Part shown: one piece after another, positions 947 through 20,248 of the stretch
How the letters are laid out: each line of letters opens with the position of its first letter
How positions within the stretch are numbered: the first letter of the stretch is position 1
NCBI GenBank assembly: GCA_964430355.1
Contig: CAYSFW010000005.1
Span: forward strand, 13,177-77,176
DNA length: 64,000 nucleotides
Reading direction: 5' to 3'
Source: an uncultured Thiotrichales bacterium
GTDB lineage: Bacteria > Pseudomonadota > Gammaproteobacteria > UWMA-0217
Notes under the pieces: model-generated
What the model was told of the DNA's origin: nothing
Database searches by the model: none
Seen by the model: only the letters and a program-made list of their open reading frames with translations
Translations under genes and position numbers: made by a program

Positions 947-956
947 ACTTTACCGC

Positions 957-2964: not shown

Positions 2965-4155
2965 ATGATCAAGCCTCATGGATCAGACACCCTGAATCCA
3001 CTGTTTGTATATGACTCCGAGGAACATCATGCCCTTAGCCACGAAGCCGAGAGTCTGCCCTCGCTACTGCTGAATTCCGCGGCCGCTGCCAATGCAGTCA
3101 TGCTCGGCGCCGGCTACTTCAACCCGCTCACCGGCTACATGAATCTTGCCGATGCCATCAGCGTCGCCGAGAACCTCAAGACCACCGATGGTCTATTCTG
3201 GCCGACGCCGGTCCTCAACATGACCAACGACATCGACGCGGTGAAAGGTAAAAAACGCCTCGCGCTGCGCGATCCGAACGTCGAAGGGCACCCGGTCCTG
3301 GCGGTGATGGACGTCGAGGATGTCGAGGAGATCTCCGACGACGAGCTGAACCTGATCGCCGAGAACGTCTACGGCACGCTGGACATGGAGCACCCGGGCG
3401 TTGCCACGTTCATGAACAATGGCCGCTATGCCGTGTCCGGCAAGATCAAAGTCCTGAACTTCTCATACTTCCAGCAGGACTTCCCGGACACCTTCCGTAC
3501 CGCGGTCGAGATCCGCAACGAGATCCAAGAGCGCGGCTGGAAAAGGGTCGTCGCGTTCCAGACGCGCAACCCGATGCACCGGGCCCATGAGGAGCTGTGC
3601 CACATGGCGATGGAACGACTGCAAGCGGACGGTCTGGTGATCCACATGCTCCTAGGCAAGCTGAAAAAGGGTGACATCCCCGCGCCGGTGCGCGATGCCT
3701 GCATTCGCAAGATGGTTGAGCTGTACTTCAAGCCCAACAGCGTGATGGTCACCGGCTACGGTTTTGACATGCTCTACGCCGGTCCGCGTGAGGCCGTGCT
3801 GCACGCCGTATTCCGCCAGAACATGGGAGCGACGCACTTCATCATCGGGCGTGACCACGCGGGCGTGGGTGATTACTACGGTCCGTTCGACGCGCAGACC
3901 ATCTTTGAAACCAAGGTGCCCAGAGGTGCCCTCGCGATTGAGTTGTTCATGGCTGACAACACGGCCTGGTCGAAAAAGCTCGGACGCGTGGTCATGATGC
4001 GCGAGGCCCCAGACCACACCAAGGATGACTTCATTACGCTGTCCGGCACTAAGGTGCGCGAGATGCTTAGCCGCGGCGAAGCGCCGCCGCCCGAGTTCTC
4101 GCGTCCCGAAGTGGCCAAGATCCTGATGGACTACTACCAAAGCCTGGGCGGCTGA
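2965..4155 (+). CDS. sat: sulfate adenylyltransferase (ATP sulfurylase), homo-oligomeric dissimilatory/sulfur-oxidizer type
   Basis: 'QTRNPMHRAHE' and 'GRDHAGVG' ATP-sulfurylase signatures. Strong SD 'aggaggg' 6 nt upstream of the ATG. 396 aa. Confidence 0.9.
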   Translation: MIKPHGSDTLNPLFVYDSEEHHALSHEAESLPSLLLNSAAAANAVMLGAGYFNPLTGYMNLADAISVAENLKTTDGLFWPTPVLNMTNDIDAVKGKKRLALRDPNVEGHPVLAVMDVEDVEEISDDELNLIAENVYGTLDMEHPGVATFMNNGRYAVSGKIKVLNFSYFQQDFPDTFRTAVEIRNEIQERGWKRVVAFQTRNPMHRAHEELCHMAMERLQADGLVIHMLLGKLKKGDIPAPVRDACIRKMVELYFKPNSVMVTGYGFDMLYAGPREAVLHAVFRQNMGATHFIIGRDHAGVGDYYGPFDAQTIFETKVPRGALAIELFMADNTAWSKKLGRVVMMREAPDHTKDDFITLSGTKVREMLSRGEAPPPEFSRPEVAKILMDYYQSLGG

Positions 4156-4411: not shown

Positions 4412-5017
4412 TCAGCTGGATTGCGACGGCTTCTCCAGCCGCAGCAGTCTGGACTCGAAATCCCGTTTCATAGACAGAAAATCTTCTGGCGTCAGATACC
4501 TGCGGGCCTCGTCGATCGCCGAGTCGGCCAGCAGTCCGTAGGTCCTGGCTTCTTCGTGGCGCTGCTGACGGCTCAGGCAGATAGCCTTGGCGAGATGTCG
4601 CTCGGCGTTGACGCGGAGCTTTCGGCTGAGCGAGTCACAGAGCGTGCCGAGGTAGTTGTTCGCGAGAAATCGTGTGCCGAGGTGGCTGTGTTCTGGCGGT
4701 GTTCCGGTCGAGGTATCCGTGCCCCGCACTGCCTCACCGCTGGCCATCTCCTCGGCCGAGCGCTCGCAGTCAATGAGGAGGGGGGGCACACTGGCAAAGG
4801 GTGCTTTGTGCGCGTCCAGTGTCGCCGTGATGCTCGGAAATTCGATAAGGCGATTGTGTGCATCGTGCAGTCTCAGCCGTTGGCGCAATCTTTCATGAAA
4901 CAGGCGATGATACAGGTCCCAGATCGCTGCGATCAGGCTGCCCAGTTCCTGACGTGATCCAGGCAAGTCTTGCAAGTTTTGAGCGTGAGCGTGATGCTTT
5001 GGCTCAGTGATTGGCAT
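4412..5017 (-). CDS. hypothetical protein (201 aa), downstream of the Ehr-like operon
   Basis: Long ORF with no motif I recognise. It is separated from the upstream nuoB-like gene by about 620 nt. Confidence 0.4.
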   Translation of the reverse strand: MPITEPKHHAHAQNLQDLPGSRQELGSLIAAIWDLYHRLFHERLRQRLRLHDAHNRLIEFPSITATLDAHKAPFASVPPLLIDCERSAEEMASGEAVRGTDTSTGTPPEHSHLGTRFLANNYLGTLCDSLSRKLRVNAERHLAKAICLSRQQRHEEARTYGLLADSAIDEARRYLTPEDFLSMKRDFESRLLRLEKPSQSS

Positions 5018-5641
5018 TGCGATTCCTCCTTATGATGTCAGCAGGCTGGGTGGTTTGTGCCTCGGCCTCTCGGTATCGACCCATTTACCCTTGGGGACGC
5101 GGCGTCGGGCCGGTGGACGTTTCCCTCGGCGGGTAGGTTGCGGCATGGTCCGTGGCAAACGTCGTATCGGCGGATTTTTCCAAAACCTCAGGAAAAGCTG
5201 ACGGAATGGCCGTGCGGGCCGAGGGGGCGTTGCGTGGTGCTTGCTTCTCGTCTGCCAGCTCGAGCTGCTCCGTCGCCGTGCATAACAGTTCCATGGTTGC
5301 TTGGCTTTAACCCGGGTTTGGTCATCGCCGGTCCTGCGTAGCGGTCCCGGCATTCGATCAAGCGCGCTCCCTCATTGGTAGACCATCCGGGTGTCAACGG
5401 TGCGTTAAAAATCACTTGGCGAAGTTTGGGGCGGAGAAACTGCAGGGTTCGGAAAGAGCGAACCGTGTTCCTCCACGAGCCTCGTGAGGTGATTCAATAC
5501 GCAGCATTGGCAGTCCGCAGCGGGATTCCGAGGCACAATGGGGCGCTCAAATCGGCGGGCTTGTTATGCTGTGTTGCAGGCAGCGCAGATCGGGGTGCCC
5601 TCTGCGGCAGCAGGGGCCTCGCTCAGGGCTCTATGAATTCT

Positions 5642-6172
5642 TTATCGATCCTTACTGACCGCCGCGAGTATGCCCTGAAGAATTGCGATGGGGGCAGGTG
5701 GGCAACCCGGCACTTCGACGTCTACGGGAATCACATCCGAGACTTTCCCGCATGTCGCGTAGTTTTTTCCAAACAGGGCGCCAATTTCGCCCGTTCCGCA
5801 ACCGCAGTCACCCATGGCGACGACCCATTTCGGTTCGGGTGTCGCCTCGTAAGTGCGCTTGAGCGCGACTTCTAGGTTACGGGATACCGGCCCGGTGACT
5901 AAGAGCATGTCGGCGTGACGAGGACTAGCGGCGAACTTCACGCCCACGCCTTCGATGTTGTAGTGGGGTCCATTGAGGGCATGGATCTCCAGTTCGCAGC
6001 CGTTACAGGAGCCCGCGTCGACGTGGCGAATGGTAATGGCCTGACCGAAAATCTTGAGAATTTCTTCCTGCAGGGTTTGAACCCGAGTGCGCAGCGTCAG
6101 GTCAGGATTGGGAGGCGGTTCGGAAACAATCCCTGTAGAGAGAATTTTCTGCAGTATTCGTCGAGTCGCCAT
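5642..6172 (-). CDS. NuoB/HycG/HyfI-like small subunit of an energy-converting hydrogenase-related complex
   Basis: 'GSCNGCE', 'MGDCGCGTGE', 'GCPPAP' Fe-S ligand motifs. The ATG lies 1 nt after the stop of the upstream gene. Confidence 0.8.
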   Translation of the reverse strand: MATRRILQKILSTGIVSEPPPNPDLTLRTRVQTLQEEILKIFGQAITIRHVDAGSCNGCELEIHALNGPHYNIEGVGVKFAASPRHADMLLVTGPVSRNLEVALKRTYEATPEPKWVVAMGDCGCGTGEIGALFGKNYATCGKVSDVIPVDVEVPGCPPAPIAILQGILAAVSKDR

Positions 6173-6173
6173 G

Positions 6174-7724
6174 CTACAAATCCTGCCCGCTGTAGCTGAG
6201 GTTGAAAGACTTGTTGATGAGTGGGAAGTCCGGCACGATATTACCCAGGACCCCAACTTCCATCACGGGCCAGTTCTGCCACGAAGGGTCGTGCGGATGC
6301 GCATAATCCAGTCGCCCGTTCGCGCCGATTCGCACAGCAATGATCACGGGACCCCTCCAGCCCTCAACCCAACCCAAGCCCTCGCAGTGAGCGGCCGGCA
6401 CCGGCAGCGGCTGGAGGATTTCTCCTGTGGGTAGCTGCTTGAGGATTGCCCTTATCAGCCTCAGGGACTCGAAGACTTCCCCGAATCGTACCGCGGCGCG
6501 CGCTTGGACATCACCTTGACGTTCAAGCGTCATGTTGACATCCAGCTTGTCGTAGGGTGGATGCGGAAACTGAACGCGCAGATCCCAGGCTTGACTGCTG
6601 GCGCGGCCCGCTAGGCCAACCAACCCGAGGCGGGCGGCAAGCTCTGGTTGTACGATGCCGGAATGGGTGAATCGATCCTGCACACCGGCATGTTCGTCAT
6701 AAATCTCTTTGAGATCAGAGACTTCAGCTTCTATCCGGTCGCATAGCTCGACAAGCCGACCCGCCCCACCCTCCGGGATGTCGGACGCTACGCCGCCGGG
6801 TACGATTCGGTCAAACAAGTAGCGGTGACCAAATACTTCCGCGGACAATCTGAGCCAGTTTTCCTTGAGGCGCCAGAATTGCATGAAACCGAAAGACAAT
6901 GCCACGTCGTTGCCGAGGTAGCCGAGGTCGCCGAGGTGATTGGCGACACGCTCCATCTCGAGGAACAGCCCTCGCAACCATGAGGCACGTTCGGGCACTT
7001 GGCTGCCTGTCGCACTCTCCACCGCCATGCAATATGCCCAGGCGTAAGCGATGTGGGAATCGCCCGACACGCGGCCCGCGAGCTTGGCACCCAAACCAAG
7101 ATCGATACCGCGAAAGCGCTGTTCGATACCCTTGTGGGTGTAGCCCAAGCGCTCCTCGAGTTTGAGGATTCGATCGCCGATGATGGAAAAACGGAAATGG
7201 CCTGGCTCGATAGTCCCGGCGTGAATTGGCCCAACGGGTATCTCATGGACGCCATCGCCCTCGACCCGAATGAAAGGATAGGCATCCGTCTCGCTTGTGG
7301 GCGGCGTTGCCGGATCGAAGTCGACACGCAGCGGGTATACCATGCGGGGCCATGCGCCGTGACGCAACCACTTGCGGTCGTCGACTGCGCCATCTGCGCG
7401 AATGCCGAGGAGGTCGAACGTCGCGCGCTGCATACGATCCGCCTGTGGAAAGGTTGATGCGAGATCAGGGTAGACCGGCGTATTCCCATCGAGTGAACTC
7501 GTTGTCCAGATCAGGCCGACGCGGCAGAGAAATGCCACATGAATTGAAAAGCCACGGCCAAACTGCCGGTCGTCGGACCCCCAGAGGGCGAGCAAAGTGC
7601 CTCCCTCATCCCTTACACCCAAGGCAAAGGAGGGGAGACGATTGGGATCGAGCGAAAACCGCCATATGGTTCCCCACTGCTGAGGAATGAGGTTGAGGTC
7701 GATGCTTCCCATCTGATGTTCCAT
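6174..7724 (-). CDS. fused NuoC-NuoD / HycE-HyfG-like large subunit, without [NiFe]-binding cysteines
   Basis: 'PVGPIHAGTIEPGHFRF' large-subunit core. No DPCxxC at the C-terminus (ends ...NLSYSGQDL) and no N-terminal RxCGxC. Confidence 0.8.
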   Translation of the reverse strand: MEHQMGSIDLNLIPQQWGTIWRFSLDPNRLPSFALGVRDEGGTLLALWGSDDRQFGRGFSIHVAFLCRVGLIWTTSSLDGNTPVYPDLASTFPQADRMQRATFDLLGIRADGAVDDRKWLRHGAWPRMVYPLRVDFDPATPPTSETDAYPFIRVEGDGVHEIPVGPIHAGTIEPGHFRFSIIGDRILKLEERLGYTHKGIEQRFRGIDLGLGAKLAGRVSGDSHIAYAWAYCMAVESATGSQVPERASWLRGLFLEMERVANHLGDLGYLGNDVALSFGFMQFWRLKENWLRLSAEVFGHRYLFDRIVPGGVASDIPEGGAGRLVELCDRIEAEVSDLKEIYDEHAGVQDRFTHSGIVQPELAARLGLVGLAGRASSQAWDLRVQFPHPPYDKLDVNMTLERQGDVQARAAVRFGEVFESLRLIRAILKQLPTGEILQPLPVPAAHCEGLGWVEGWRGPVIIAVRIGANGRLDYAHPHDPSWQNWPVMEVGVLGNIVPDFPLINKSFNLSYSGQDL

Positions 7725-7725
7725 G

Positions 7726-9177
7726 TCAGCCCCCTAACAACTGCGCCGCTTGACGGTACCAGGTAGCCAGGTAGGGCGGAATGAACAACCCGAGCATCAG
7801 CACCAGGACCAAGTGCACGAAAACTGGAGTCAAGGCAGGCTGATGGGGCAATCGCGGGAGTTGCGTCTCACCAAAAACCATTGGCTGCACCTTGCCGAAA
7901 ATCGAGGCGAACGCAACACCTAGGGCGACGAGCAGAAACGGCGTCGCCCAAGGATGCTCGTGCATCGCGGTGGTAATGATCAGAAATTCACTCGCAAAGA
8001 CACCGAACGGAGGAATACCCAAAATGGCTACCGTGCCGAGCATGAGACCCCAGCCGATGGTCGGATTGGTCTTGATCAGGCCGCGGATACTCTCCATGCG
8101 CTGAGTGCCTGCGCTTTGGGTGGCGTGTCCCACCGCGAAAAAAATGGCCGATTTCGTCAAAGAATGCATCGTCATATGCAGCAGACCCGCGAAAGTTGCA
8201 ACCGCGCCGCCCATGCCAAAAGCAAAGGTGATCAGTCCCATGTGCTCGATCGACGAGTAGGCAAACATTCGCTTGATGTCCGTCTGGCGCTTGAGCAAAA
8301 AAGCTGCAACCACAACCGATAGCAGACCAAAACCCATCATCAGATTGCCTGCGATCTCGGTGTTGAGAGCACCGTCTACGAGCACCTTGGAACGCATGAC
8401 CGCATAGAGTGCTACGTTGAGTAGCAGCCCCGAAAGGACCGCGGATATCGGTGTCGGCCCCTCAGCGTGGGCATCCGGGAGCCAGTTGTGCAGGGGCGCC
8501 AACCCAACCTTCGTCCCGTATCCTACAAGCAGGAACACGAACGCCAGCTGCAGAACGGTAGGCTCAAGCTGACCCTTCACGCCGTTGAGGTGAGTCCACA
8601 GCAGAGCAGCCCCCCCCTCCCCGAGAACCTTTTCGGATGCAAAGTAGAGCAGGATGGTTCCGAACAAGGCGAGCGCGATGCCTACGCCACAAAGTATGAA
8701 GTACTTCCATGCAGCCTCCAGCGCCGCAGGGGTTCGGTAGATGGACACCAGCAACACCGTGGCGAGCGTCGCCGCCTCCATCGACACCCAAAGTATGCCC
8801 ATGTTGTTTGTGGTTAAAGCCAGCAGCATCATGCTGATGAAAATCTGATAGCTGGAATGATACAGGCGCAGTCGCCTGTCGTTGAGACGACCGTGCGCCT
8901 TCTCGATGCGCATGTAAGGCCGCGAGAACAGCGCAGTGGTAAACGCTACGAAAGCAGTCAATGAGACGAGGAACACGTTGAATGAGTCTATGAAGAACCA
9001 GCCCTCACCGACCATGACAGGACCGTTTTCGATGATTTTCTCGGTGAGTACGGCCGACGCGACAAATGTCAGAAAGCTTAATAACGCATTGATTTCCGGC
9101 GCGGAATCACGATTTCCCCACAGCGCCAAAAATATCCCCCCAGCCAACGGAAGCCCAATAACCCAGTAGATTTCCAT
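7726..9177 (-). CDS. NuoN/NuoM/HyfF-like proton-pumping antiporter subunit
   Basis: 483-aa polytopic membrane protein carrying a 'WLPDAH' (WLPxAH-type) antiporter-subunit motif. Confidence 0.8.
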   Translation of the reverse strand: MEIYWVIGLPLAGGIFLALWGNRDSAPEINALLSFLTFVASAVLTEKIIENGPVMVGEGWFFIDSFNVFLVSLTAFVAFTTALFSRPYMRIEKAHGRLNDRRLRLYHSSYQIFISMMLLALTTNNMGILWVSMEAATLATVLLVSIYRTPAALEAAWKYFILCGVGIALALFGTILLYFASEKVLGEGGAALLWTHLNGVKGQLEPTVLQLAFVFLLVGYGTKVGLAPLHNWLPDAHAEGPTPISAVLSGLLLNVALYAVMRSKVLVDGALNTEIAGNLMMGFGLLSVVVAAFLLKRQTDIKRMFAYSSIEHMGLITFAFGMGGAVATFAGLLHMTMHSLTKSAIFFAVGHATQSAGTQRMESIRGLIKTNPTIGWGLMLGTVAILGIPPFGVFASEFLIITTAMHEHPWATPFLLVALGVAFASIFGKVQPMVFGETQLPRLPHQPALTPVFVHLVLVLMLGLFIPPYLATWYRQAAQLLGG

Positions 9178-9180
9178 GGC

Positions 9181-9843
9181 TCAGTATTCCTTGAGTTTTT
9201 CCATGTGTTTCAGGTCGAGCGACTCGAACGTGTCGCGGATCTGGAAGAAGAATATGCCCAGCACGAAAACGCCAACGAGCACATCTAGCGCCACGCCCAG
9301 TTCGACGACCATAGGCATCCCGTAGGTCGCAGAAGTGGCCGCGAAAAAAAGCCCGTTTTCGATCGACAGAAAGCCGATCACCTGCGGAATCGCCTTGCTG
9401 CGCGTGATCATCATCAGGAACGAGAGCAGCACACTGGCCATGGCGATCCCAAGCGTAGAGCGCGTTATGGTTCCGGCAAACTGCACGATCGGTGCTGCAA
9501 GTTTGAACGCGAAGATCACCAGAGCGATGCCAATGAGCATCGTCGTCGGTATGTTTATCATCGGCTCCGTCTCGCGGCTCACGTTCAGTTTTTTGATGAT
9601 GCGGTAAAAAAACCACGGCATGGCAATGACTTTCAGGATCAGCGTCAATGCTGCTGAGTAATACAAATGGTGCTGATGCGTGGACCAGCCGACGATAGCG
9701 GTGGATAGGGCGAGCGCTGCGCCCTGCCAACCGAATAGCGTCACCAGCCCAACGATGCGACGTTGCGACAGCATTGCGAAAGAAATCAGCAGCAGAATAG
9801 CCGCTAGCAGATTGACGATCTGGAGGTGGAAACTCAGTTCCAT
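9181..9843 (-). CDS. HyfE-like small membrane subunit
   Basis: 220-aa hydrophobic protein placed between the NuoH-like and NuoN-like genes, as in hyf operons. Confidence 0.55.
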   Translation of the reverse strand: MELSFHLQIVNLLAAILLLISFAMLSQRRIVGLVTLFGWQGAALALSTAIVGWSTHQHHLYYSAALTLILKVIAMPWFFYRIIKKLNVSRETEPMINIPTTMLIGIALVIFAFKLAAPIVQFAGTITRSTLGIAMASVLLSFLMMITRSKAIPQVIGFLSIENGLFFAATSATYGMPMVVELGVALDVLVGVFVLGIFFFQIRDTFESLDLKHMEKLKEY

Positions 9844-9844
9844 T

Positions 9845-10789
9845 TCAAACCTCGAGGAGAAAATGCGTTAGCATGCCGAGCACGGCTAGCAGGAATGCCG
9901 TGCCGAGGAATTCAGGGGCACGGAACAGCCGCAGCTTGGCCAAAACGGCTTCGATCAGTGCCAGCGCAGCTCCGCCAATGATCATCTTCGACACAAGGGC
10001 GAGCATTGCCAAAGGGATGTCGGCCAGCTCACCCCGGGGCGCGATGCCCCATGGCACGAACAGCGCGATCCCCAATGTCGAATAGGTGAACAGTTTCAGC
10101 GCGACCGTCCACTCGAGAAGTGCGAGATGGCGGCCGGAATACTCAAGAATGGCAGCCTCGTGGATCATCGTTAGCTCCAAGTGTGTCGTGGGGTTGTCCA
10201 CCGGGATGCGAGCATTTTCCGCCACCGAGATCATCCAGAAGGACACGGCCGCAAACGCGAGGCTTGGATAGATGACAAATTGCTTGTGCGCAAGCGTCTC
10301 GACGATCGTGGGTAATTCCGTCGACGCCGATATGAGGCTGGCAGTGAAGAACACCATCAGCAATGCAGGTTCAGCCAAAAACGCGATGAGCATTTCGCGG
10401 CGTGCCCCGAGCGTTCCGAATGATGTTCCGATGTCCATCGCTGCAAGCGCAAGGAACATTCGCGCCAGCGCAAAAAGCCCAACGAGGGCGATAGCGTCGG
10501 CGGCAGGAGAAAATGGCAGATCGTTCGCAATGGTCGGGACGATGCCAGCCGCGAGTGCCATGCACGCAAATTTTACGTATGGGGCAAAACGGAACAGGGG
10601 CGAAGCGTCGTGCGCTATGACTGCATCCTTGTGAAACAGCTTGCGGAGAGTGCGGTAGGACTGCGTCAAGGGCGGCGGCGTACGCCCTTGGAGTAGTGCC
10701 CGGCATTGATTGACCCAGCCCATCAACAGCGGGGCCAGAGCAATAGCAATGAGTGTCTGAAATACTTGAAGGAGGATGCCGGTGGTCAT
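9845..10789 (-). CDS. NuoH/HycD/HyfC-like membrane subunit
   Basis: Polytopic protein in hycD/nuoH order. Start taken at MTTGILLQ. Confidence 0.7.
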   Translation of the reverse strand: MTTGILLQVFQTLIAIALAPLLMGWVNQCRALLQGRTPPPLTQSYRTLRKLFHKDAVIAHDASPLFRFAPYVKFACMALAAGIVPTIANDLPFSPAADAIALVGLFALARMFLALAAMDIGTSFGTLGARREMLIAFLAEPALLMVFFTASLISASTELPTIVETLAHKQFVIYPSLAFAAVSFWMISVAENARIPVDNPTTHLELTMIHEAAILEYSGRHLALLEWTVALKLFTYSTLGIALFVPWGIAPRGELADIPLAMLALVSKMIIGGAALALIEAVLAKLRLFRAPEFLGTAFLLAVLGMLTHFLLEV

Positions 10790-10793
10790 GCGT

Positions 10794-12806
10794 TCACCGT
10801 GAGACGAATGCAAGTAGGAACAGCAGCGTGGCAAAGCTGTAAATCAGATACCACTGGATGCGCCCATGTTGTAATCGACCGGCCAGCTCGGAAAGCGACT
10901 CAGCCAGTTTGGCGATCGGCAGGTAGATGAAAAACCAAATCTTGTCGAGTGATGCGCCTCTATAGCGGGGGTGGCGATCAAAGGGGTCGGGCCGCTCGCG
11001 CTCCACTTTCATGAACGGCTCAAAGATGTGCCGGATGGGTTGTCCAAAGCCTTCAGCAGTATCCTGCATACGCGCATCCTGCTCCGGGTATCCGCAATCC
11101 CAGGGATCACTGCGCCTGACACGACCGTGATAGAAATGCCGTACACCGAGGAAAGTCAACAGCAGCACGATCGCAACGACTGCGAGGAAAACCAAGGGGG
11201 CATAACTTGCGCGCTCGGCCGACACCGGTGCCAGCAGGATCCAGCTCGTGGTCTGGGGTAGGGTGTGCCCCGTCAGCAACCGGGCGACCGGATTCAGCCA
11301 GGAAATGACGACAGTGGGAAACAAGCCAAGCAGTACGCAGCCCGCCGCGAACCAGAGCATGCCTACACGCTCCCGCCAGCTTGCCTCGTGCGCGTGCCGC
11401 AGCGCGGGGTGTCTGGGCTGACCGAGAAAGATCACGCCGTAGAATTTCACCATCACATAGGCCGCCAGTGCCGCGGCCAGGATGACGGACGCTGTGGCGA
11501 CGGGAATGACCATGTTCAGATACGATTGGGACAGTCCAGGGGTCATGAGGAACGCCTGGAGCAGCAGCCATTCGGAGACGAAGCCGTTTAGCGGTGGTAG
11601 CCCGGCGATGGCAAAGATACCAATAAGAACGAGCCAAGCTGTCCATGGCATGGCGCGCATCAAGCCGCCAAGCTGCCCCATGCGGCGCTCGCCCGTGGCG
11701 TGCAGCACAGAGCCCGTGCCAACGAATAGCAGACTCTTGAAAAAGGCATGATTCAACGTGTGGTAGAGAAGCGCCGTCAAACTCAACGCCGCGAGCGTTC
11801 CTTTGCCGTCGGTGTGGAAGATGAGCGTCAGGCCCAGCGCGGCGATCAGAACGCCTATGTTCTCGATCGACGACCATGCCAGCAGCCGTTTCATGTCGGA
11901 TTGGACAGCCGCAAAAATCACACCGTAGAGGGCCGTGACCAGGCCCACCGTCAATGTCAATGTGCCCCACCAGGTGAGCTGCACGTTCAGGAGATCGAAC
12001 GTTACCCGCAGGAGGCCGTAGATCGCGGTCTTGAGCATGACCCCCGACATCAATGCCGAGACCGGCGAGGGTGCAGCTGGGTGCGCTTCCGGCAGCCAGA
12101 TGTGCAGTGGAACGAGACCGGCTTTCGCACCGAAACCAAACAGCGCGAGCAAGTACGCGATAGACGCCCAGAATGGCGAAAGCTCGGCAAACCGAATGTG
12201 TTCGAACGTGTAGGCGCCATGACCGCCCTGTAGAACACCAAAGCAGAGCAGGAGAGATACGGCACCGACGTGCGCGATCAGCAGATAAAGGAAGCCGGCC
12301 CGCCTGATTTCGGCGATTTGGTGATCGGATGTGACCAGGAAATACGACGACAACGCCATCAACTCCCATGAAACCATAAAGGCGTAGGCGTCATCGGCTA
12401 GCAAAACGAGGACCATGCCAGCCAGGAACAGGAAATACCAAGTGGACAGCAGTGCGAAAGGTTGATCCGCCATCGAGCGGAAGTACCCGTACCCGAAGAC
12501 CGTCGTGCCGAAGGCGGCCGCACCAAGCAAGGTCAGGAAGAAAGCGGAGAGCGCGTCCAGGCGTAAGTGAAACGGCAGCTCAGGCAACCCAAGGGGGAGC
12601 ACCAGTGTCGTCGCCGGACTCATCAGCCCGAGGACGCCAACGCTGGCGATGAAGAGCGCGCCAAGGCCCCCAAGCGGAAATATCAAACGTCTGGCCACAG
12701 TGATGCGCTGAGTCAAGACGGCGGTGGCCGCGAGGAGCAGCCAGAACAAGACGCCCAAGGCCGCGAGGTTTACCGTGCCCAATCCCAGAGACTGCATAGT
12801 TGCCAT
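10794..12806 (-). CDS. NuoL/HyfB-like antiporter subunit (first gene of the operon)
   Basis: 671 aa with 'WLPEAH' (WLPxAH-type) and 'ENIG' antiporter-subunit motifs. ATG at 12806; the tracked ORF begins at GTG 12809. Confidence 0.8.
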   Translation of the reverse strand: MATMQSLGLGTVNLAALGVLFWLLLAATAVLTQRITVARRLIFPLGGLGALFIASVGVLGLMSPATTLVLPLGLPELPFHLRLDALSAFFLTLLGAAAFGTTVFGYGYFRSMADQPFALLSTWYFLFLAGMVLVLLADDAYAFMVSWELMALSSYFLVTSDHQIAEIRRAGFLYLLIAHVGAVSLLLCFGVLQGGHGAYTFEHIRFAELSPFWASIAYLLALFGFGAKAGLVPLHIWLPEAHPAAPSPVSALMSGVMLKTAIYGLLRVTFDLLNVQLTWWGTLTLTVGLVTALYGVIFAAVQSDMKRLLAWSSIENIGVLIAALGLTLIFHTDGKGTLAALSLTALLYHTLNHAFFKSLLFVGTGSVLHATGERRMGQLGGLMRAMPWTAWLVLIGIFAIAGLPPLNGFVSEWLLLQAFLMTPGLSQSYLNMVIPVATASVILAAALAAYVMVKFYGVIFLGQPRHPALRHAHEASWRERVGMLWFAAGCVLLGLFPTVVISWLNPVARLLTGHTLPQTTSWILLAPVSAERASYAPLVFLAVVAIVLLLTFLGVRHFYHGRVRRSDPWDCGYPEQDARMQDTAEGFGQPIRHIFEPFMKVERERPDPFDRHPRYRGASLDKIWFFIYLPIAKLAESLSELAGRLQHGRIQWYLIYSFATLLFLLAFVSR

Positions 12807-13085: not shown

Positions 13086-14825
13086 CTAGGTGGACCCGGG
13101 TTGCGCGTGACTGCGGTGGCTGAACAGCGGACGCTCATGCTCCTCGACGCCGAGGCGGCGGTAGATGTCCTCCAGTGCCATGTCCTCGGTCGCGAAGATG
13201 TTCTCCTCACCGATGAGATCGCGCAGGTGCGTATTGCGCATGACCTCCAGGACCTGGCGCTTCAGTCCGCTCATCAGCAGCGTGATGCCGTTGCTGCGAA
13301 GCCGTTCGGTCAGGTGGTGCAGCACCTCTTCGCCGGAGGCGTCGAGCTGGTTGATGCCGTCGCCGACGATAAGCACGAACTTGGCATTCGGTTTATCCGC
13401 GACCGCAGTCAGAATCGAGTCTTCGAAGTACGAGACGTTGGCGAAGTAGAGTGAGCCGTCGAACCGGATAATGATGATGCGCGGATCGGTTGGCAGCGTC
13501 GGGTGCACGGCCAGGTCGCGCAGCGTGCCGTCGTTGAAGCGGCCGAGATGCGCTACCCGGGGTTTCATGGTGCGGTAGAGGAATAGACCGATGGCGAGCC
13601 CAGCGCCGACCAGGATCCCGTTGTCGAGGTGCGGGGCGAAGGCCAGCGTCGCAATGAAGGTGATGACCGATGCGATGCCGTCGTGCTTGCTCGCCTGCCA
13701 GGCGTGCTTGATCGCTTTGAAGTTCACCAGACCAATGACCGCCATCATGATCACGGCGGCCAACACCGCCTGGGGCAGGTGGTAGAGCAACGGCGTCAAG
13801 AACAGGAGCGTCAAGAGTACGAGCAGCGCCGTGAATACCGAGGACATCCCGGTCTTGGCGCCTGCATTCAGGTTCACCGCCGAGCGAGAGAACGATCCGG
13901 AGACTGGATAAGCCTGCGTGAAGCTGCCGACGATGTTGGCAAGCCCTTGCCCAACGAGCTCCTGATTGGGATCGATACGATCCCGGGTCTTGGCGGCCAT
14001 GGCCTTGGCGATCGAGATGGCCTCCATGAATCCGACCAGCGAGATGACAAAAGCCGAGGAGATCAACTGCATGATCACTGCCAGGTCAAAGGTCGGTAGC
14101 GCAAACGAGGGCAACCCCTTGGGGATGTCGCCCACCACGGCGCCGCCGAGCTGCTTGTAGCCGATCGCCCAGCTTACGGCGGTGGTCAAGGCAACGGCAA
14201 TGAGCACGCCGGGCAGTTTGGGTGCGAACCTCTTCAGGCCCCACATGATCGCAAAGGCCGCCACGCCGAACACCAACGTCAGCAGGTGGGTGTTTCCGAT
14301 CTGCTGCAGCACGCCCCAGATGTCGACCATGAAGTGCTCGCTGCGGCCCATCTTCACGCCAAAGATCTTCGACAGCTGCGACAGCCCGATGATGATCGCT
14401 GCGGCGTTGGTGAAGCCGACTATCACCGGGTGTGAGAGAAAGTTCACCACCACGCCAAGCCTGAACACGCCGAGCAGCAGTTGGATAATGCCGACCAGGA
14501 GCGCCAGCAGGATCGCGAGCGCAACGAACTGCTCGGAACCGGCTGCGGCGAGCGGCGCTAGCGCCGAGGCGGTCAACAGCGACACGACGGCAACCGGACC
14601 GGTCGCAAGCTGGTGCGACGAACCGAACATGGCCGCAACGGCGACGGGCAGGAAGGCGGCGTAAAGCCCATAGAACGCAGGCAGGCCAGCGAGCTGTGCA
14701 TAGGCCATTGACTGCGGGATTAGTACCAGCGCGACGGTGATGCCAGCGATCAGATCGCTGCGCACCGTTTCGGCGCGCAAGGGAAACCAGCGCAGGAATG
14801 GGATGAAGCGGGCAAGGTCGTTCAT
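13086..14825 (-). CDS. SulP-family sulfate permease with C-terminal STAS domain
   Basis: 'AYAQLAGLPAFYGLY' SulP signature, multiple transmembrane segments, and a C-terminal STAS domain ('IIIRFDGSLYFAN'). Confidence 0.85.
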   Translation of the reverse strand: MNDLARFIPFLRWFPLRAETVRSDLIAGITVALVLIPQSMAYAQLAGLPAFYGLYAAFLPVAVAAMFGSSHQLATGPVAVVSLLTASALAPLAAAGSEQFVALAILLALLVGIIQLLLGVFRLGVVVNFLSHPVIVGFTNAAAIIIGLSQLSKIFGVKMGRSEHFMVDIWGVLQQIGNTHLLTLVFGVAAFAIMWGLKRFAPKLPGVLIAVALTTAVSWAIGYKQLGGAVVGDIPKGLPSFALPTFDLAVIMQLISSAFVISLVGFMEAISIAKAMAAKTRDRIDPNQELVGQGLANIVGSFTQAYPVSGSFSRSAVNLNAGAKTGMSSVFTALLVLLTLLFLTPLLYHLPQAVLAAVIMMAVIGLVNFKAIKHAWQASKHDGIASVITFIATLAFAPHLDNGILVGAGLAIGLFLYRTMKPRVAHLGRFNDGTLRDLAVHPTLPTDPRIIIIRFDGSLYFANVSYFEDSILTAVADKPNAKFVLIVGDGINQLDASGEEVLHHLTERLRSNGITLLMSGLKRQVLEVMRNTHLRDLIGEENIFATEDMALEDIYRRLGVEEHERPLFSHRSHAQPGST

Positions 14826-14831
14826 GATGGC

Positions 14832-15212
14832 CTAAAGTTCTTTGGGTAAATCAGGATGGTCGGACGCCGCAACCAATGGGCACTCCAGCTTAGCCCACGG
14901 GTCGCCGCCGTCTGTAGCCCAGGCAGCGGGGCGCCCCACGACCACTGTCGTAACACACTCGTGCAGTCGCGCGTGTTCGACCACGTAACGGGCATCAAGC
15001 CCTTCGATGGGTGTCAGGTGGCACTGCACGCCACCCTCCTCGAGGGCGGCGAGTCTGGATTCAATAACCGACCAGTCGGTGCGGGCAGGATCGGCCAGCA
15101 CTTCGAGATCGGCATCCATGCGCCTGCAGAGCGCAGCGCCAACCGATAGCAGCCGATCCACGGGTGAGATCGGGCGCAAGGCGACGACGACTCGGCGTTT
15201 CACCGGTTTCAT
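14832..15212 (-). CDS. universal-stress-protein-like small protein, co-oriented immediately upstream of SulP
   Basis: 'RRVVVALRP...' and 'VVVGRPA...ECPLVAA' resemble the UspA fold pattern. Weak call. Confidence 0.4.
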   Translation of the reverse strand: MKPVKRRVVVALRPISPVDRLLSVGAALCRRMDADLEVLADPARTDWSVIESRLAALEEGGVQCHLTPIEGLDARYVVEHARLHECVTTVVVGRPAAWATDGGDPWAKLECPLVAASDHPDLPKEL

Positions 15213-15761
15213 GCCGACCGTGCAACCGGGGTCAGTCCAGCACGAACCGCCGCAGCGCCATCGAGTGTCGCGGGGACATGAAAGCACCCCGACGCAAGGC
15301 GGGTCTGCCCAGCCGCGATCGCTGAGGCATTGTACCCGGTGCGTCGAGGGGTCTGGGTGCGGAATGTCATGTTTGACCTATACGGCAAAGCAGTTTTGTC
15401 GATGGGACCGCCATTAGCAGTTTGCGTGCCAAGTAAGGGCACTGGCCTACATCATTGAAATGGCACATGGATGATGCCCAGCCATACCGGCTTCGTATTG
15501 CGATATGCAACATCCCTGTTACACTGCGCGACACTGGTCGGTCGCCGCATGAAACGAGTGGGCCAGAGGCGGCATCCATGGTAGCCGGGGATGGATCGTC
15601 ACCGGAGGGGCCGTCGGTGTTCAGGGGATTGGCACGTCAGCCCTGTGAGCCGCACCTCCAGCCGCGTGCATACGGGACCGTGCCGTGACTTTGCGTTTTC
15701 GTCGCGGCTACGCAGGTACTGGCCCAGCGACTGCGCCGGACGCTCGACGTTGCAGAAACCC

Positions 15762-17132
15762 ATGACCCAAGGATCACCCATGACCGGCCGACTACTTCTG
15801 GTCGACGCCGAGCGCGTCCCGCTCGACCGGCTCGAAAGCTCCCTGACTGCTGCAGGCCACAGGGTCACGGCGGTGCGCAGTGGCCGTCATGCCCTCGCGC
15901 TGATCGATACCGAGCCTTTCGACGTGGTGATCGCCGACTTGTCGGGTGAGGATCTGGACGGTATGCAGTTACTGCGGCGCTCCAAGGCGCTGCAGCCCGA
16001 CCTGGAGGTGATCCTGTTCGCGGCCAATGCCAGGCTGGAGGTGGCGGTGGAGGCCATGAGGGAAGGAGCTTTTCATTTCCTGGCAGGACCCGTCCAGCCC
16101 AATGCGGTGCGCGCCGCCGTCTCTGAGGCGTTGGAGCGCGTCCGCCGCAAACAGGAGCGGCAAGCCCTGCGCGCGCAACTGCGCGCGGTCGCCGGACAGA
16201 CCCGGGTCATCACGCGCGATGGCGGGATGCAGAAGCTCCTCGAGATGGCGCGCCAGGTAGCCCCGACTGGCTGCAACGTCCTCATCACGGGCGAGTCCGG
16301 CACCGGCAAAGAGCTGTTTGCCCGCTATCTGCACGAGCACGGTTGTTGCGGATCAGGCCCTTTCGTGGCGGTCAACTGCGGGGCATTCAATGAAGAACTG
16401 CTCGCCAACGAGCTATTCGGGCACGAAAAGGGCGCCTTCACGGGGGCCGTGGGCAAGACGGGCCTGCTGGTTGCCGCCAGCGGCGGCACCTTGTTTCTCG
16501 ATGAGGTCACCGAGATGTCGCCGGCGATGCAAGTCAAGCTACTTCGCGCGATCCAGGAGCGGGAGGTGTTGCCGCTGGGCTCCACCACCCCGGTCAAGGT
16601 CGACGTACGCTTCATCGCGGCCAGCAACCGAAACATGAAAGAGTGGGTTGCGGAGGGCCGCTTCCGGCAGGATCTGTATTTCCGAATCAATGTCGTCAAT
16701 CTGCACATTCCCCCACTCTCACAACGTCGTGAAGATATCCCCCTACTCGCGCAGCACTTCCTGGAGCGCGCCGCGCGGGTGATGGGCAAAGGCGTGCACG
16801 CGATAGCCGAGGACGCGCTCGCGCTGCTCTCAGCCTATGACTTTCCGGGCAATGTGAGAGAGCTGGAAAACATCATTGAGCGGGGCGTCGCCCTGTGTCT
16901 CGGCGACACGCTACAGGCCGCCCATCTGCCGGACGACCTGCGCGATCTCAGCATCCGCGCCTTCCGCCGACGCGATGGCCGCGTGGTCCCGCTCGAAGAG
17001 TGGGAACGCGAGTACATCTTGTGGGTGCTTGACCAGGCGCACGGTAACCAGACGCTCGCCGCGCAGATGCTCGGTATCGACCGCGTCTCGCTATGGCGCA
17101 AGCTCAAGCGCTACGATGGTGGGAGGGACTAG
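15762..17132 (+). CDS. sigma-54-dependent response regulator (NtrC family: receiver + AAA+ + HTH)
   Basis: 'ITGESGTGKE' Walker A and 'GAFTGA' sigma-54 interaction motif. N-terminal receiver domain ('DVVIADL') and C-terminal HTH. Confidence 0.85.
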   Translation: MTQGSPMTGRLLLVDAERVPLDRLESSLTAAGHRVTAVRSGRHALALIDTEPFDVVIADLSGEDLDGMQLLRRSKALQPDLEVILFAANARLEVAVEAMREGAFHFLAGPVQPNAVRAAVSEALERVRRKQERQALRAQLRAVAGQTRVITRDGGMQKLLEMARQVAPTGCNVLITGESGTGKELFARYLHEHGCCGSGPFVAVNCGAFNEELLANELFGHEKGAFTGAVGKTGLLVAASGGTLFLDEVTEMSPAMQVKLLRAIQEREVLPLGSTTPVKVDVRFIAASNRNMKEWVAEGRFRQDLYFRINVVNLHIPPLSQRREDIPLLAQHFLERAARVMGKGVHAIAEDALALLSAYDFPGNVRELENIIERGVALCLGDTLQAAHLPDDLRDLSIRAFRRRDGRVVPLEEWEREYILWVLDQAHGNQTLAAQMLGIDRVSLWRKLKRYDGGRD

Positions 17133-17569: not shown

Positions 17570-20248
17570 ATGACGACGCTAAATCTCGATTATCTGTTCC
17601 GTCCCAGCTCCGTGGCCTTGATCGGGGCATCGAACCGGCCGCGCAGTGTCGGCGCGGTGGTGATGCGCAACCTGCTAGCTGGCGGATTCTTGGGGCCGGT
17701 GATGCCCGTCAATCCTCGGCATCAGGCGGTTTCGGGCGTCTTGGCTTACCCCGAGGCCGGGGCGCTGCCTGTCGTGCCGGAGCTGGCCGTGATTGCCACG
17801 CCGCCGAAGAGTGTGCCCGGGCTGATCGATGAATTGGGCGCGCGCGGTACCCGAGCGGCCATCGTCATGACCGCGGCGCTCGGTCAGCACCGCGACGAGC
17901 AGGGCCGGACCATGCTGGAGCTCATGCTTGAGGCCGGGCGCCGGCACGGCGTGCGCATTCTCGGACCGAACTGCCTGGGGCTCATTGTGCCAGGGATCGG
18001 TCTGAATGCGAGCTTCTCTCACACCGGCATCCTGCCGGGCAGGATTGCGTTCCTGTCGCAGTCTGGCGCGCTGTGCACAACGGTGCTCGATTGGGCGAAG
18101 TCGCGCGGGATCGGGTTCTCGCACTTCGTTTCGCTCGGTGACAACGCCGATGTGGATTTCGGTGACCTGCTCGACTACCTCGGCTCCGACCCGAGTACCG
18201 AAGCGATCCTGCTCTACATCGAGTCCATCAAGGATGCGCGCAAGTTTATGTCGGCAGCGCGCGCCGCGGCGCGCAACAAGCCGGTGCTCGCGATCAAGTC
18301 AGGCCGGGTGGCCGAAGGCGCCAAGGCAGCAGCCTCGCACACCGGCGCACTGGCCGGCGCGGACGATGTGTATGACGCCGCCTTTGCCCGCGCGGGCATG
18401 CTACGGGTCTTTGAGATCGACGAGCTGTTCGACGCGGTGGAGACGCTGGCGCGGGCCCGGCCGCTGGCCGGCGACCGGCTGGCCATCCTTACCAACGGCG
18501 GGGGGCCAGGGGTGATGGCGGTCGACTACCTCATCTCGAGCGGGGGTCGACTGGCGGAGCTCAACGAAAGGACCATCGCCGCGCTTGATGCGGCATTGCC
18601 CGCCTCGTGGTCGCGCGCCAATCCGGTGGACATCATCGGGGATGCGCCGGATTCCCGGTATGCGGATGGGGTGCGCACGCTGCTGAAGTGCGAGCAGATC
18701 GACGCGCTGCTGGTGATGCACGCGCCGACTGCGATCGCGCCGAGTGAGGAATCGGCCAGGGCCGTGGTCGAGGCGGTCGCCGGCACGCGGCGCAACGTCC
18801 TCACCTGCTGGCTGGGGCAGCAGGGCGTGCAGCTGGCGCGCGACATTTTCCGGCAGGCCGGGATTCCCACCTACGACACGCCGGAGAGCGCGGTGCGCGC
18901 CTTCATGCACATGGTGCGTTACCGGCGCAATCAGGAACTGCTGATGGAGACGCCCGCATCCGTGCCGAGCGAATTCACGCCGGCCACGACCACGGCGCGG
19001 CTGGTGCTGGAGAATGCCATCGCGGAGGGCCGCGAGCAGCTCAGCGAGCCCGAGGCCAAGGCGGTGCTGGCGGCCTACGGCATTCCGGTGGTCGAGACGC
19101 ACATCGCCAGCACGCCGGAGTCGGCTGCGCACCTTGCGCTGGAAATCGGCTTTCCCGTGGCGCTCAAGATCCTCTCGCCGGACATCATCCACAAGTCCGA
19201 TGTCGGCGGCGTGGTGCTCGATCTCGAGGGCCCCGAGGACGTGGTGCGGGCGGCGCAGGGGATGCTCAACCGGGTGCGCGAAATCCACCCGGAGGCCAAG
19301 CTGCGAGGCTTTTCAATCCAGAAGATGGCGCGCCGGCCGGGTGCATACGAGTTGATCATTGGCGCGGCCACCGACCCGATTTTCGGACCCGTCTTGCTGT
19401 TCGGTCAGGGCGGGGTAGCCGTCGAGGTGATCAAGGACCGTGCCGTCGCGCTGCCACCCCTGAACATGAACCTCGCGCGCGAGCTCATTGGGCGCACGCG
19501 CGTCTCGCGTCTGTTGGCCGGGTACCGCGGACGGCCCGCCGCCGATCTCGATGCCGTCAAACTCACCCTGATTCAGGTTTCGCAGATTATCGTCGACCTG
19601 CCGGAGATCGTCGAACTCGACATCAACCCCTTGTTTGCCGACCACGAGGGCGTGCTCGCACTCGATGCACGCATCCGCGTGCAACCGGTGACGCGGCCGG
19701 GCGACGTGCGGCTGGCGATCCGCCCATACCCCAAACACCTCGAGGAGAAGGTGACGCTGCCCAACGGCAAGAAGCTGCTGATCCGGCCGATCCGGCCCGA
19801 GGACGAGCCGGCCCATCACGTGTTCATTTCCAAGCTAACGCCCGAGGACATCCGGTTCCGCTTCTTTGGCCTGCTGCGCGAGATTCCGCACTCGCAGATG
19901 GCGCGCTTTACGCAGATCGACTACGACCGCGAAATGGCCTTCATTGCCACCGCGCCAGATGAGCACGGACAGCCTGAGACCCTGGGCGTGGTGCGTACGG
20001 TCACTGATCCCGACAACGTTCGCACGGAGTTTGCGATCATCGTGCGTTCCGACTTCCAGGGTCAGAAGCTCGGTCGCGTGCTCATGGAAAAAATGATCCG
20101 CTACTGCCGGGAGCGCGGCACGCGGGAGATCTTCATGCTCACCCTGTTCGACAATCGGGCCATGCAGGCGCTCGCGGCACGCTTCGGCTTCGAGAGCCGG
20201 ATGTCCGACGACGGCGAGACCGTGGAGCTCAAGCTGCGGCTGGCTTGA
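17570..20248 (+). CDS. pat: protein lysine acetyltransferase Pat (NDP-forming acyl-CoA synthetase-like domains + C-terminal GNAT)
   Basis: CoA-binding N-terminus ('VALIGASNRPRSVG'), ATP-grasp region and a C-terminal GNAT ('FAIIVRSDFQGQKLGRVLM'). 892 aa. Confidence 0.85.
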   Translation: MTTLNLDYLFRPSSVALIGASNRPRSVGAVVMRNLLAGGFLGPVMPVNPRHQAVSGVLAYPEAGALPVVPELAVIATPPKSVPGLIDELGARGTRAAIVMTAALGQHRDEQGRTMLELMLEAGRRHGVRILGPNCLGLIVPGIGLNASFSHTGILPGRIAFLSQSGALCTTVLDWAKSRGIGFSHFVSLGDNADVDFGDLLDYLGSDPSTEAILLYIESIKDARKFMSAARAAARNKPVLAIKSGRVAEGAKAAASHTGALAGADDVYDAAFARAGMLRVFEIDELFDAVETLARARPLAGDRLAILTNGGGPGVMAVDYLISSGGRLAELNERTIAALDAALPASWSRANPVDIIGDAPDSRYADGVRTLLKCEQIDALLVMHAPTAIAPSEESARAVVEAVAGTRRNVLTCWLGQQGVQLARDIFRQAGIPTYDTPESAVRAFMHMVRYRRNQELLMETPASVPSEFTPATTTARLVLENAIAEGREQLSEPEAKAVLAAYGIPVVETHIASTPESAAHLALEIGFPVALKILSPDIIHKSDVGGVVLDLEGPEDVVRAAQGMLNRVREIHPEAKLRGFSIQKMARRPGAYELIIGAATDPIFGPVLLFGQGGVAVEVIKDRAVALPPLNMNLARELIGRTRVSRLLAGYRGRPAADLDAVKLTLIQVSQIIVDLPEIVELDINPLFADHEGVLALDARIRVQPVTRPGDVRLAIRPYPKHLEEKVTLPNGKKLLIRPIRPEDEPAHHVFISKLTPEDIRFRFFGLLREIPHSQMARFTQIDYDREMAFIATAPDEHGQPETLGVVRTVTDPDNVRTEFAIIVRSDFQGQKLGRVLMEKMIRYCRERGTREIFMLTLFDNRAMQALAARFGFESRMSDDGETVELKLRLA

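Follow-up and report, generated by a model that had tools for sequence, protein, structure and literature searches.

An Ehr operon without [NiFe] ligands behind a SulP transporter gene in an uncultured Thiotrichales bacterium: gene context and a possible role in ion-coupled anion uptake

The DNA considered here, hereafter the window, is a stretch of 64,000 nucleotides (nt) from an uncultured Thiotrichales bacterium (assembly GCA_964430355.1, contig CAYSFW010000005.1, positions 13,177 to 77,176 of the forward strand). Between positions 12806 and 5642, its minus strand bears six tightly packed, contiguous genes in a hyfB-C-E-F-G-I-like order, the products of which are named EhrA, EhrB, EhrC, EhrD, EhrL and EhrS (Table 1). 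The gene set is that of the public gene calls for identical DNA (L081, L082) and of our own list of open reading frames (ORFs), which agree; other ORFs were called with a GC3-aware caller (GC3, GC content at third codon positions). An earlier reading of the letters alone (the original prediction) had proposed the succession of NuoL-, NuoH-, HyfE-, NuoN-, NuoCD- and NuoB-like subunits, and the gene calls together with Pfam and NCBIfam matches bear it out. Its coordinates were right overall, with the exception of the small-subunit start, where the 204-aa ORF opening at TTG 6256 is an over-extension and the true start is ATG 6172.

Table 1. Features of the window; positions are counted from its first letter
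Feature	Position	Strand	Assignment	Support or remark
EhrA	10794..12806	-	HyfB/NuoL-like antiporter-type subunit, 670 aa	PF00361, 2.8e-52
EhrB	9845..10789	-	HyfC/HycD/NuoH-like subunit, 314 aa	PF00146, 1.9e-30; gene call
EhrC	9181..9843	-	HyfE-like membrane subunit, 220 aa	NCBIfam 'hydrogenase 4 membrane subunit', 2.1e-25, under cut-off
EhrD	7726..9177	-	HyfF/NuoN-M-like antiporter-type subunit, 483 aa	PF00361, 7.3e-54
EhrL	6174..7724	-	Fused NuoC + NuoD/HycE-like large subunit without [NiFe] ligands, 516 aa	PF00329 + PF00346
EhrS	5642..6172	-	NuoB/HycG/MbhJ-like small subunit, 176 aa	PF01058, 3e-27
SulP	13086..14825	-	SulP/SLC26 anion transporter with STAS domain, 579 aa	PF00916, 4.9e-114; PF01740
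Small gene	14832..15212	-	Small conserved protein, about 126 aa from ATG	95 aa by a later-starting public call; first gene of the unit
TGGCACGCAAACTGCT	15416..15431	-	Sigma-54 (-24/-12) promoter-like site	Upstream of small gene, SulP and ehr genes
Response regulator	15780..17132	+	Sigma-54-dependent, NtrC/ZraR/AtoC type, 450 aa	Response_reg, Sigma54_activat, HTH_8; divergent
Acetyltransferase	17570..20248	+	Pat-type protein acetyltransferase	NDP-forming acyl-CoA synthetase domains + GNAT; after the response regulator
Gap	5018..5641			624 nt, 3' of ehrS
201-aa ORF	4412..5017	-		
sat	2965..4155	+	ATP sulfurylase	1.5 kb downstream of the operon
Repeat protein	28155..34376	-	2073 aa	DUF11, SdrD-B, CarboxypepD_reg
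Repeat protein	34572..37496	-	974 aa	DUF11, SdrD-B, CarboxypepD_reg
C14 gene	38411..39331	+	Caspase-like peptidase C14	
CHAT gene	39471..45215	+	1914-aa protein with CHAT, TPR-S and DUF7379	After the C14 gene

The complexes known as Ehr (energy-converting-hydrogenase-related) stand at the evolutionary junction of the membrane hydrogenases and complex I and are widespread, with representatives in Thiobacillus, Gallionellaceae, Acidithiobacillus, Geobacter, Nitrospira and candidate phyla, and to our knowledge no substrate, partner or phenotype has been assigned to any of them. The six-gene operon is almost certainly an ordinary member of this group. EhrA matches the NCBIfam model 'hydrogenase 4 subunit B' with 877.6 bits (cut-off 667) and EhrD the model 'hydrogenase 4 subunit F' with 863.1 bits (cut-off 543), and the matches of the large and small subunits to the NCBIfam NuoD and NuoB models fall under cut-off. 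Because the subunit set and the absent CxxC motifs match published descriptions of Ehr complexes (PMC7894505, PMC10284858, PMC6349859, PMC7735108, PMC4136832), the operon is a further example of a recognised class, as the original prediction had classified it. The third-position GC content of the ehr genes is 0.62-0.73, versus 0.78-0.87 in neighbouring genes, and GC content falls to 0.55-0.59 across 6-12 kb of the window, a difference that may stem from horizontal acquisition or from a different codon-usage regime.

Several members of the class have been described elsewhere. The locus GSU0739-45 of Geobacter sulfurreducens, comprising EhrA-1, EhrC, EhrL and EhrS among its products, was termed an 'Ech-hydrogenase-related (Ehr) complex' with a role 'never investigated' (PMC7894505). 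Compared by description, it is like the operon in the window in its subunit types (NuoL, NuoH, HyfE, NuoN, large and small) and in its want of CxxC motifs and of NuoI, whereas the window differs in that the operon sits behind a SulP gene and a sigma-54 site. Complexes 'close to group 4f' without CxxC motifs are reported as functionally unsolved from Nitrospira, Margulisbacteria and Saganbacteria, with formate dehydrogenase partners suggested speculatively (PMC10284858, PMC6349859), and a Hyf-like cluster without HyfA is found in the sulfur oxidiser strain Hiromi 1 (PMC4136832). In Acidithiobacillus ferrooxidans, AFE2149-54 corresponds to hyfBCEFGI, is placed by HydDB among 'non-hydrogenase catalytic subunit sequences', and was undetected in H2-grown cells (PMC7735108). 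This cluster, again compared by description, has the identical six-gene order in a chemolithoautotroph, but it belongs to the Acidithiobacillia, neighbours a form II RuBisCO, has no reported adjacent SulP and is accompanied by a can2-sulP pair elsewhere.

The structural basis for setting the complex apart from the hydrogenases lies in EhrL, whose closest solved relative is HycE from E. coli (7z0s_E, E = 1.3e-62). In a residue-by-residue alignment of the two, the HycE stretch 'RVCGICGFAH' pairs with 'RVSGDSHIAY' of EhrL and 'DPCYSC' pairs with 'NLSYSG', and thus all four Ni-Fe cysteines are replaced, in agreement with the earlier claim that RxCGxC and DPCxxC are missing; neither of the group 4 hydrogenase motifs RxCGxCxxxH and DPCxxCxxH/R occurs in EhrL. 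Ligand cysteines that were displaced but present, which would have undone that claim, were looked for and not seen, as EhrL holds just four scattered Cys, none at or near the ligand columns. The protein terminates one residue past its final Asp, a property shared by all 80 relatives, and is therefore without a C-terminal maturation-protease peptide. Since EhrL cannot bind a [NiFe] centre, the complex is not a hydrogenase. The likeness to E. coli hydrogenase-4/FHL-2 and FHL-1 (FHL, formate hydrogenlyase; HycE, 7Z0S) resides in the B-C-E-F-G-I order and the HyfB/HyfF models, and the window lacks HyfA, HyfH (both ferredoxin-type), HyfD, HyfJ, the Ni-Fe Cys, the processing peptide and formate dehydrogenase of those systems. 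The labels that databases attach, among them 'Ni,Fe-hydrogenase III large subunit' as well as 'hydrogenase 4 subunit B/F', would favour a genuine [NiFe] hydrogenase or FHL-2 with displaced ligands, or else its decaying relic, yet either is scarcely credible and is refuted at the level of sequence by the off-position cysteines, by the absent processing peptide and by window scans that found no hyp, fdhF or hycB/hyfA genes; for the relic, conservation across thousands of homologues stands against it as well.

That conservation was gauged in several ways. Homologues of the large subunit number eight thousand candidates at E <= 1e-20 in a 90%-clustered database, the best 120 of which are 68-75% identical (the window's own sequence scoring 100%), and a search of 1.84 billion cluster representatives (50%-clustered) returned 6,781 representatives related to EhrL at E <= 0.001, with and without the Ni-Fe Cys. 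The gene order is invariant in 80 species-level loci from Thiobacillus (including T. thioparus DSM 505 and metagenome-assembled genomes of T. denitrificans), Parasulfuritortus, Gallionellaceae and 'Hydrogenophilales', with products 57-92% identical to those of the window; EhrB is 64-86% identical in 70 related loci and EhrC 64-86% in 71. Decay is excluded by conservation across thousands of homologues, and, as far as sequence comparison can tell, the operon is under purifying selection.

The former metal pocket of EhrL has been remodelled into a conserved arrangement of Ser220-Gly-Asp222-Ser223, Asp273 and Ser510...Gly513, with Glu173, Asp222 and Asp273 as its acidic residues. RVSGD[ST] is present in 73 of the 80 related loci and NKSFNLSYSGxDL in all 80, and among 86 full-length representatives, reaching down to about 33% identity, 57 have the Ser-Gly-Asp / Ser-Tyr-Ser-Gly pattern and 16 the cysteines. 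A comparison by columns reveals that the Cys-less group and its nearest Cys-bearing relatives have nearly all other conserved residues in common, including GPxHAGxIEPGHFRF, E236, R251, E256, E258, R259, H263, D266 and R301, and differ at Asp222, Asp273, Pro480, Ser510 and Gly513. Asp222 (window 7058-7060) and Asp273 (6905-6907) are specific to the Cys-less clade, and at the position of Asp273 the nearest Cys-bearing relatives have Gly. The conserved replacement columns indicate that the pocket is a remodelled acidic, hydroxyl-rich site beside the cluster rather than a degenerated one; no recognisable Zn-site motif is found in EhrL. A crude neighbour-joining tree of 87 representatives, without reference group 4f sequences, places 15 of the 16 Cys-bearing sequences in one cluster among the Cys-less ones, a pattern compatible with either loss or gain of the Ni-Fe site.

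Asp273 aligns with Asp139 of Nqo4 from Thermus complex I and, via constant offsets, is inferred to be the equivalent of D325 in E. coli NuoCD, a residue whose protonation state changes during quinone chemistry (PMC11627005). Neither quinone-site residue of complex I is kept, EhrL having Gly221 where T. thermophilus Nqo4 has Tyr87 and Ile172 where it has His38, and the β1-β2 loop of EhrL is of the hydrogenase type (GPxHAGxIEPGHF), unlike that of complex I. A clade-specific acidic pocket in which the coupling position of complex I is occupied by Asp gives a way into the question of how such machines link chemistry to ion pumping.

The small subunit EhrS aligns with MbhJ (3.2e-36) and HycG (2.4e-30) with its CxxC, GDC and GCPP cysteines in register, a four-Cys pattern kept in 78 of 79 related loci. 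It has the ligands for one proximal [4Fe-4S] cluster, which upholds the earlier view that the NuoB-like subunit retains its Fe-S ligands. An additional Cys lies two residues past the third cluster ligand (GDCGC, window 5807-5812); 59 of 79 relatives have it, as do several distant members, and it is not present in the aligned HycG, MbhJ or NuoB.

The source of electrons for this cluster was sought without success near the operon. Pfam searches and gene calls detected no Fer4 domain in the operon proteins or flanks, and a six-frame scan of the whole window for CxxCxxCxxxC found none in ORFs of more than 50 codons, its one match being a 50-codon ORF. No NuoI/HycF/EchF-type 2x[4Fe-4S] subunit was found in the operon, the window or the related loci inspected, no NuoEFG genes in the operon or flanks, and no formate dehydrogenase, hyp or ferredoxin genes by Pfam scans among the larger ORFs of the window, so the earlier statement that no NuoI/HycF-like or formate dehydrogenase gene lies in or beside the operon stands. 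The idea that the 624-nt gap or another part of the window hides a ferredoxin gene was considered and rejected, the motif scan being negative.

These observations bear on the possibility that the complex is a stand-alone redox-driven ion pump, a minimal complex-I-like enzyme whose cluster would be reduced directly by a soluble donor of low potential, be it ferredoxin, flavodoxin or a docking dehydrogenase, with a quinone or other small molecule accepting electrons in the remodelled pocket to drive proton pumping, and with the adjacency of SulP being regulatory or incidental. Retention of the cluster ligands in 78 of 79 loci and in distant members, the location of Asp273 at the coupling Asp of complex I (Nqo4 D139, E. 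coli D325), the autonomy of the six-gene unit in distant lineages and the expectation of a redox partner in the literature (PMC6349859, PMC4136832) all lend this explanation weight. It is nevertheless doubtful, as no recurrent partner gene adjoins the operon across about 90 loci, the Tyr87/His38 equivalents are Gly221/Ile172, the two connecting clusters are missing together with their NuoI-like subunit and the window contains no ferredoxin-type gene. In its overall composition the operon resembles complex I in its homologues of NuoB, C, D, H and L/M/N, its N2-type cluster and Asp273, but it is without NuoI, NuoEFG, NuoA, NuoJ and the Tyr87/His38 equivalents.

The membrane arm, comprising two antiporter-like subunits, one NuoH-like and one HyfE-like subunit, is apparently complete for ion translocation. 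The best solved relatives of EhrD belong to the Pyrococcus MBS and MBH complexes (6U8Y, 6CFW), and its alignment with MbsH (6u8y_H, 2.9e-38) and MbhH (9e-31) displays a kept Glu that we take to be that of transmembrane helix (TM) 5 and kept Lys residues that we take to be those of TM7 and TM11; Asn occupies the position of the TM8 Lys of MbsH and MbhH, and Glu replaces the TM12 Lys. EhrA contains WELMAL, GAKAGLVPLHIWLPEAH, MLKTAIY, FFKSLLF and FVSEW, which presumably provide the TM5 Glu, TM7 Lys, TM8 Lys, TM11 Lys and TM12 Glu, respectively, and the NuoH-like EhrB retains the ...ELxxxxxxxxEYSG loop. The charged and loop residues kept in EhrA, EhrB and EhrD argue for a functioning ion-translocating machine. 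MBS provides a precedent as a member of the superfamily with a non-hydrogenase activity, and EhrS, too, has its best solved relative, MbhJ, in this group; MBS and MBH, however, have a NuoI-like two-cluster subunit (MbsN in the MBS/MBX sulfane reductase-type complexes) and an Mrp sodium module (MbsA-C/D-G homologues), and the operon in the window has neither.

With charged residues kept in the antiporter-like subunits, an electron-input module absent, and an acidic pocket (Glu173, Asp222, Asp273) in place of the catalytic metal site, the complex might be imagined as a non-redox, Mrp-like cation/proton antiporter for pH or Na+ homeostasis, in which the hydrophilic cap would be a structural or regulatory lid. 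This is quite unlikely, given that the MrpE/F/G-type small subunits of Mrp and of the MBH sodium modules are lacking and that the cluster Cys and nearly all of the hydrogenase-type pocket residues are conserved beyond the needs of a lid.

Beyond what the original prediction described, the operon extends upstream to a SulP gene and a small gene that lie behind a sigma-54 site, and the ehr genes probably form a single sigma-54-controlled unit with both. The site TGGCACGCAAACTGCT has one mismatch to TGGCAC-N5-TTGCW, and sites this good, itself included, number three in the whole window on both strands (128 kb of strand); of 31 related loci, 21 have a TGGCACG-N4-CTGC[AT] box ahead of the small-gene orthologue. 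The divergent regulator matches the NCBIfam ZraR model (1e-113, under cut-off). Of 58 related loci, 27 encode a homologue of this regulator, a histidine kinase or both no farther than 4 kb from the operon, and relatives also have a HAMP histidine kinase at the regulator position. In the window, the gene that follows the regulator encodes the Pat-type acetyltransferase, at a position where relatives have a histidine kinase. The spacer from the SulP stop to the ehrA start measures 276 nt, all on one strand, and contains no terminator-like site on the operon strand; a structured RNA in this spacer was rejected, its fold being no better than shuffles (z = -0.62). Orthologues of the small gene occur upstream of SulP in about 30 related loci, and its product has no Pfam or NCBIfam match, the best hit of a profile search of the PDB being an insignificant one to UspA (E = 0.14).

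The best solved relative of the SulP protein is the H+/sulfate symporter AtSULTR4;1 (7lhv, 1.4e-106), with BicA at 8.7e-33. In the AtSULTR4;1 alignment it keeps equivalents of the binding-site residues Gln112, Tyr116, Ser392 and Arg393 and of the proton-sensing Glu347, the acidic coupling residue on TM8, the roles of which are given in the structural paper on SULTR (PMC8298490), and it is probably a cation-coupled anion transporter.

What accompanies the operon in relatives was surveyed in those species-level loci, 58 in number, where the operon is complete and 3 kb or more of sequence is available upstream. An anion transporter gene lies within 1.5 kb in 45 of these, a carbonic anhydrase in 18, and either or both in 51. 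The commonest arrangement is a window-type SulP alone (28 loci), followed by a second SulP subfamily, about 35% identical, with a gamma-carbonic anhydrase (8), a TauE-family transporter with a gamma-carbonic anhydrase (4), and a SulP of uncertain subfamily (3). Two loci each have a window-type SulP with a gamma-carbonic anhydrase, a gamma-carbonic anhydrase alone, and the second SulP subfamily alone; a SulP of uncertain subfamily with a gamma-carbonic anhydrase, and an SbtA-type bicarbonate transporter (PF05982, 4.5e-115) with an LCIB-like carbonic anhydrase, are found in one locus each, and seven loci have neither transporter nor carbonic anhydrase. The gamma-carbonic anhydrase, for which the best NCBIfam match is the CcmM N-domain (1.5e-36), thus adjoins the operon in 17 relatives and the LCIB-like enzyme in one. 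These partners are non-orthologous and not one inherited gene. In one locus (L083) the SulP-gamma-carbonic anhydrase pair is convergent and downstream of the operon. Of 51 loci, 17 have the RuBisCO activase genes cbbQ/cbbO no more than 7 kb from the operon, in one instance (L086) with a RuBisCO small-subunit gene next to them, and this proximity in Thiobacillus relatives is paralleled in the independent lineage of A. ferrooxidans, where consecutive locus tags put AFE2149-54 beside cbbM-cbbQ-cbbO (AFE_2155-57), an adjacency read from the numbering only.

SbtA-type transporter genes near an Ehr operon were seen in two relatives, L064 (in the region of 569-1507, minus strand, and 2863-4008, plus strand) and L031 (3774-4667, plus strand). 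In L031 the SbtA-like gene comes after ehrS, and in L064 the LCIB-like carbonic anhydrase gene is directly upstream, its Pfam match being weak (26 bits, cut-off 25). Small genes of the ribbon-helix-helix type (PF19839, RHH_9) recur beside Ehr operons of both close and distant relatives (L083 3017-3220; L086 13574-13774; L088 3610-3807 and 13117-13302; L094 4591-4830), none being seen in the window, and may encode a dedicated regulator of Ehr operons.

Taken with the gene neighbourhood, the tentatively preferred explanation is that Ehr could be an ion-translocating module that supports the uptake of an anion, probably inorganic carbon, by coupling to the transporter. The divergent NtrC-type regulator would switch on the sigma-54 promoter, and the small gene, SulP and the six ehr genes would be co-expressed. 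The Ehr complex would then move H+ (or Na+) across the membrane as an energy-coupling module, with either the redox state of the one cluster or the proton-motive force as its power source, and would feed or balance the ion circuit of the neighbouring SulP transporter. The process served may be the acquisition of HCO3-/CO2 for RuBisCO, to which the genes around the operon in related autotrophs point. Cyanobacterial NDH-1MS (CupA) and the DAB systems (DabAB; DAB2) exemplify complex-I-type antiporter subunits that serve inorganic-carbon uptake or CO2 hydration in autotrophs. The comparison is a functional analogy only, resting on synteny, in that the neighbourhood of the relatives has carbonic anhydrase, bicarbonate-transporter and RuBisCO genes; Pfam detected no DabA (PF10070) or CupA/CupB homologue in the operon proteins. 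In the library of papers that was searched, none was found to tie Ehr to carbon uptake.

A number of points weigh against this explanation. One group of Betaproteobacteria accounts for most of the 80 loci, and common descent rather than selection may therefore lie behind part of the synteny. Four members at a greater distance (L088, L089, L092 and L094; 45-51% identity), whose flanks are long, have the six-gene operon alone, with no transporter, carbonic anhydrase or RuBisCO genes near it, which implies a core Ehr function independent of those partners, and in the window itself no carbonic anhydrase, cbbQ/O or RuBisCO genes were found. A weak sigma-70-like site in the SulP-ehrA spacer makes separate transcription of the ehr genes possible. 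The strictly conserved Fe-S cluster implies electron transfer, for which the carbon model names no donor or acceptor, and the abundance of the Geobacter complex increased on formate (PMC7894505), pointing elsewhere. Finally, the SulP protein is much nearer to a sulfate symporter than to BicA, and TauE represents a family of sulfite exporters; what is carried could be a sulfur oxyanion.

In its fullest form, this last point would have Ehr energise or balance the export (or uptake) of sulfate or sulfite via SulP/TauE. The likeness of SulP to AtSULTR4;1 with its binding and proton-sensing residues kept, the TauE/SafE-family transporters that stand in for SulP in 4 loci, the sat gene 1.5 kb downstream in the window and the Thiobacillus-like sulfur-oxidising hosts would suit such a function. 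It is unlikely all the same, because sat is near the operon in 0 of 80 related loci, the recurrent neighbours (carbonic anhydrases, SbtA-type transporter, RuBisCO genes) are irrelevant to sulfate transport, and binding-site residues do not tell the anion selectivity of SULTR proteins (PMC8298490).

To a specialist the operon itself, being of an already-known type, is unsurprising, and its significance could lie in its gene context. The most far-reaching form of the anion-uptake explanation, a speculative and rather improbable one, is that NiFe-less Ehr would be the energy-coupling core of an unrecognised inorganic-carbon concentrating system in Thiobacillus-like and related autotrophic Betaproteobacteria, and perhaps in Acidithiobacillus. 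If true, antiporter machinery of the complex I type would have been recruited independently for a third time, cyanobacterial NDH-1MS and DAB being the earlier cases; the system would use interchangeable anion transporters (SulP, TauE, SbtA) together with gamma or LCIB-like carbonic anhydrases, all controlled by a sigma-54 two-component switch, and would be the first physiological role for the Ehr family. T. thioparus, T. denitrificans and Parasulfuritortus are culturable chemolithoautotrophs in which the operon is linked with anion transporters, carbonic anhydrases and RuBisCO, and where the window-type arrangement occurs a sigma-54 promoter and a two-component system lie beside it; this conserved context makes the function of Ehr testable.

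Downstream of ehrS, the original prediction had noted a non-coding gap of 620 nt followed by an unknown 201-aa gene, and the gap indeed measures 624 nt and the ORF has no family match. Both are present solely in contigs of the window's own lineage, the gap matching nothing in relatives, and both lie outside the Ehr system; the 201-aa gene was accordingly rejected as an Ehr partner. The gap has no Rfam signal and no terminator-like site on the operon strand, its repeats are trivial, and a 107-aa ORF within it was dismissed as Arg/Pro-rich and without a coding-type GC pattern. A structured RNA or regulatory element in the gap was likewise rejected, the sole Rfam match in the window being a tRNA at 51354-51438. 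The sat gene farther downstream fits a sulfur-oxidising host and, being unlinked to the operon in 80 of 80 relatives, was not accepted as part of the Ehr system. Elsewhere in the window, the C14 and CHAT genes form a pair that resembles a protease-based defence or cell-death module, and the two large repeat proteins are probably surface adhesins.

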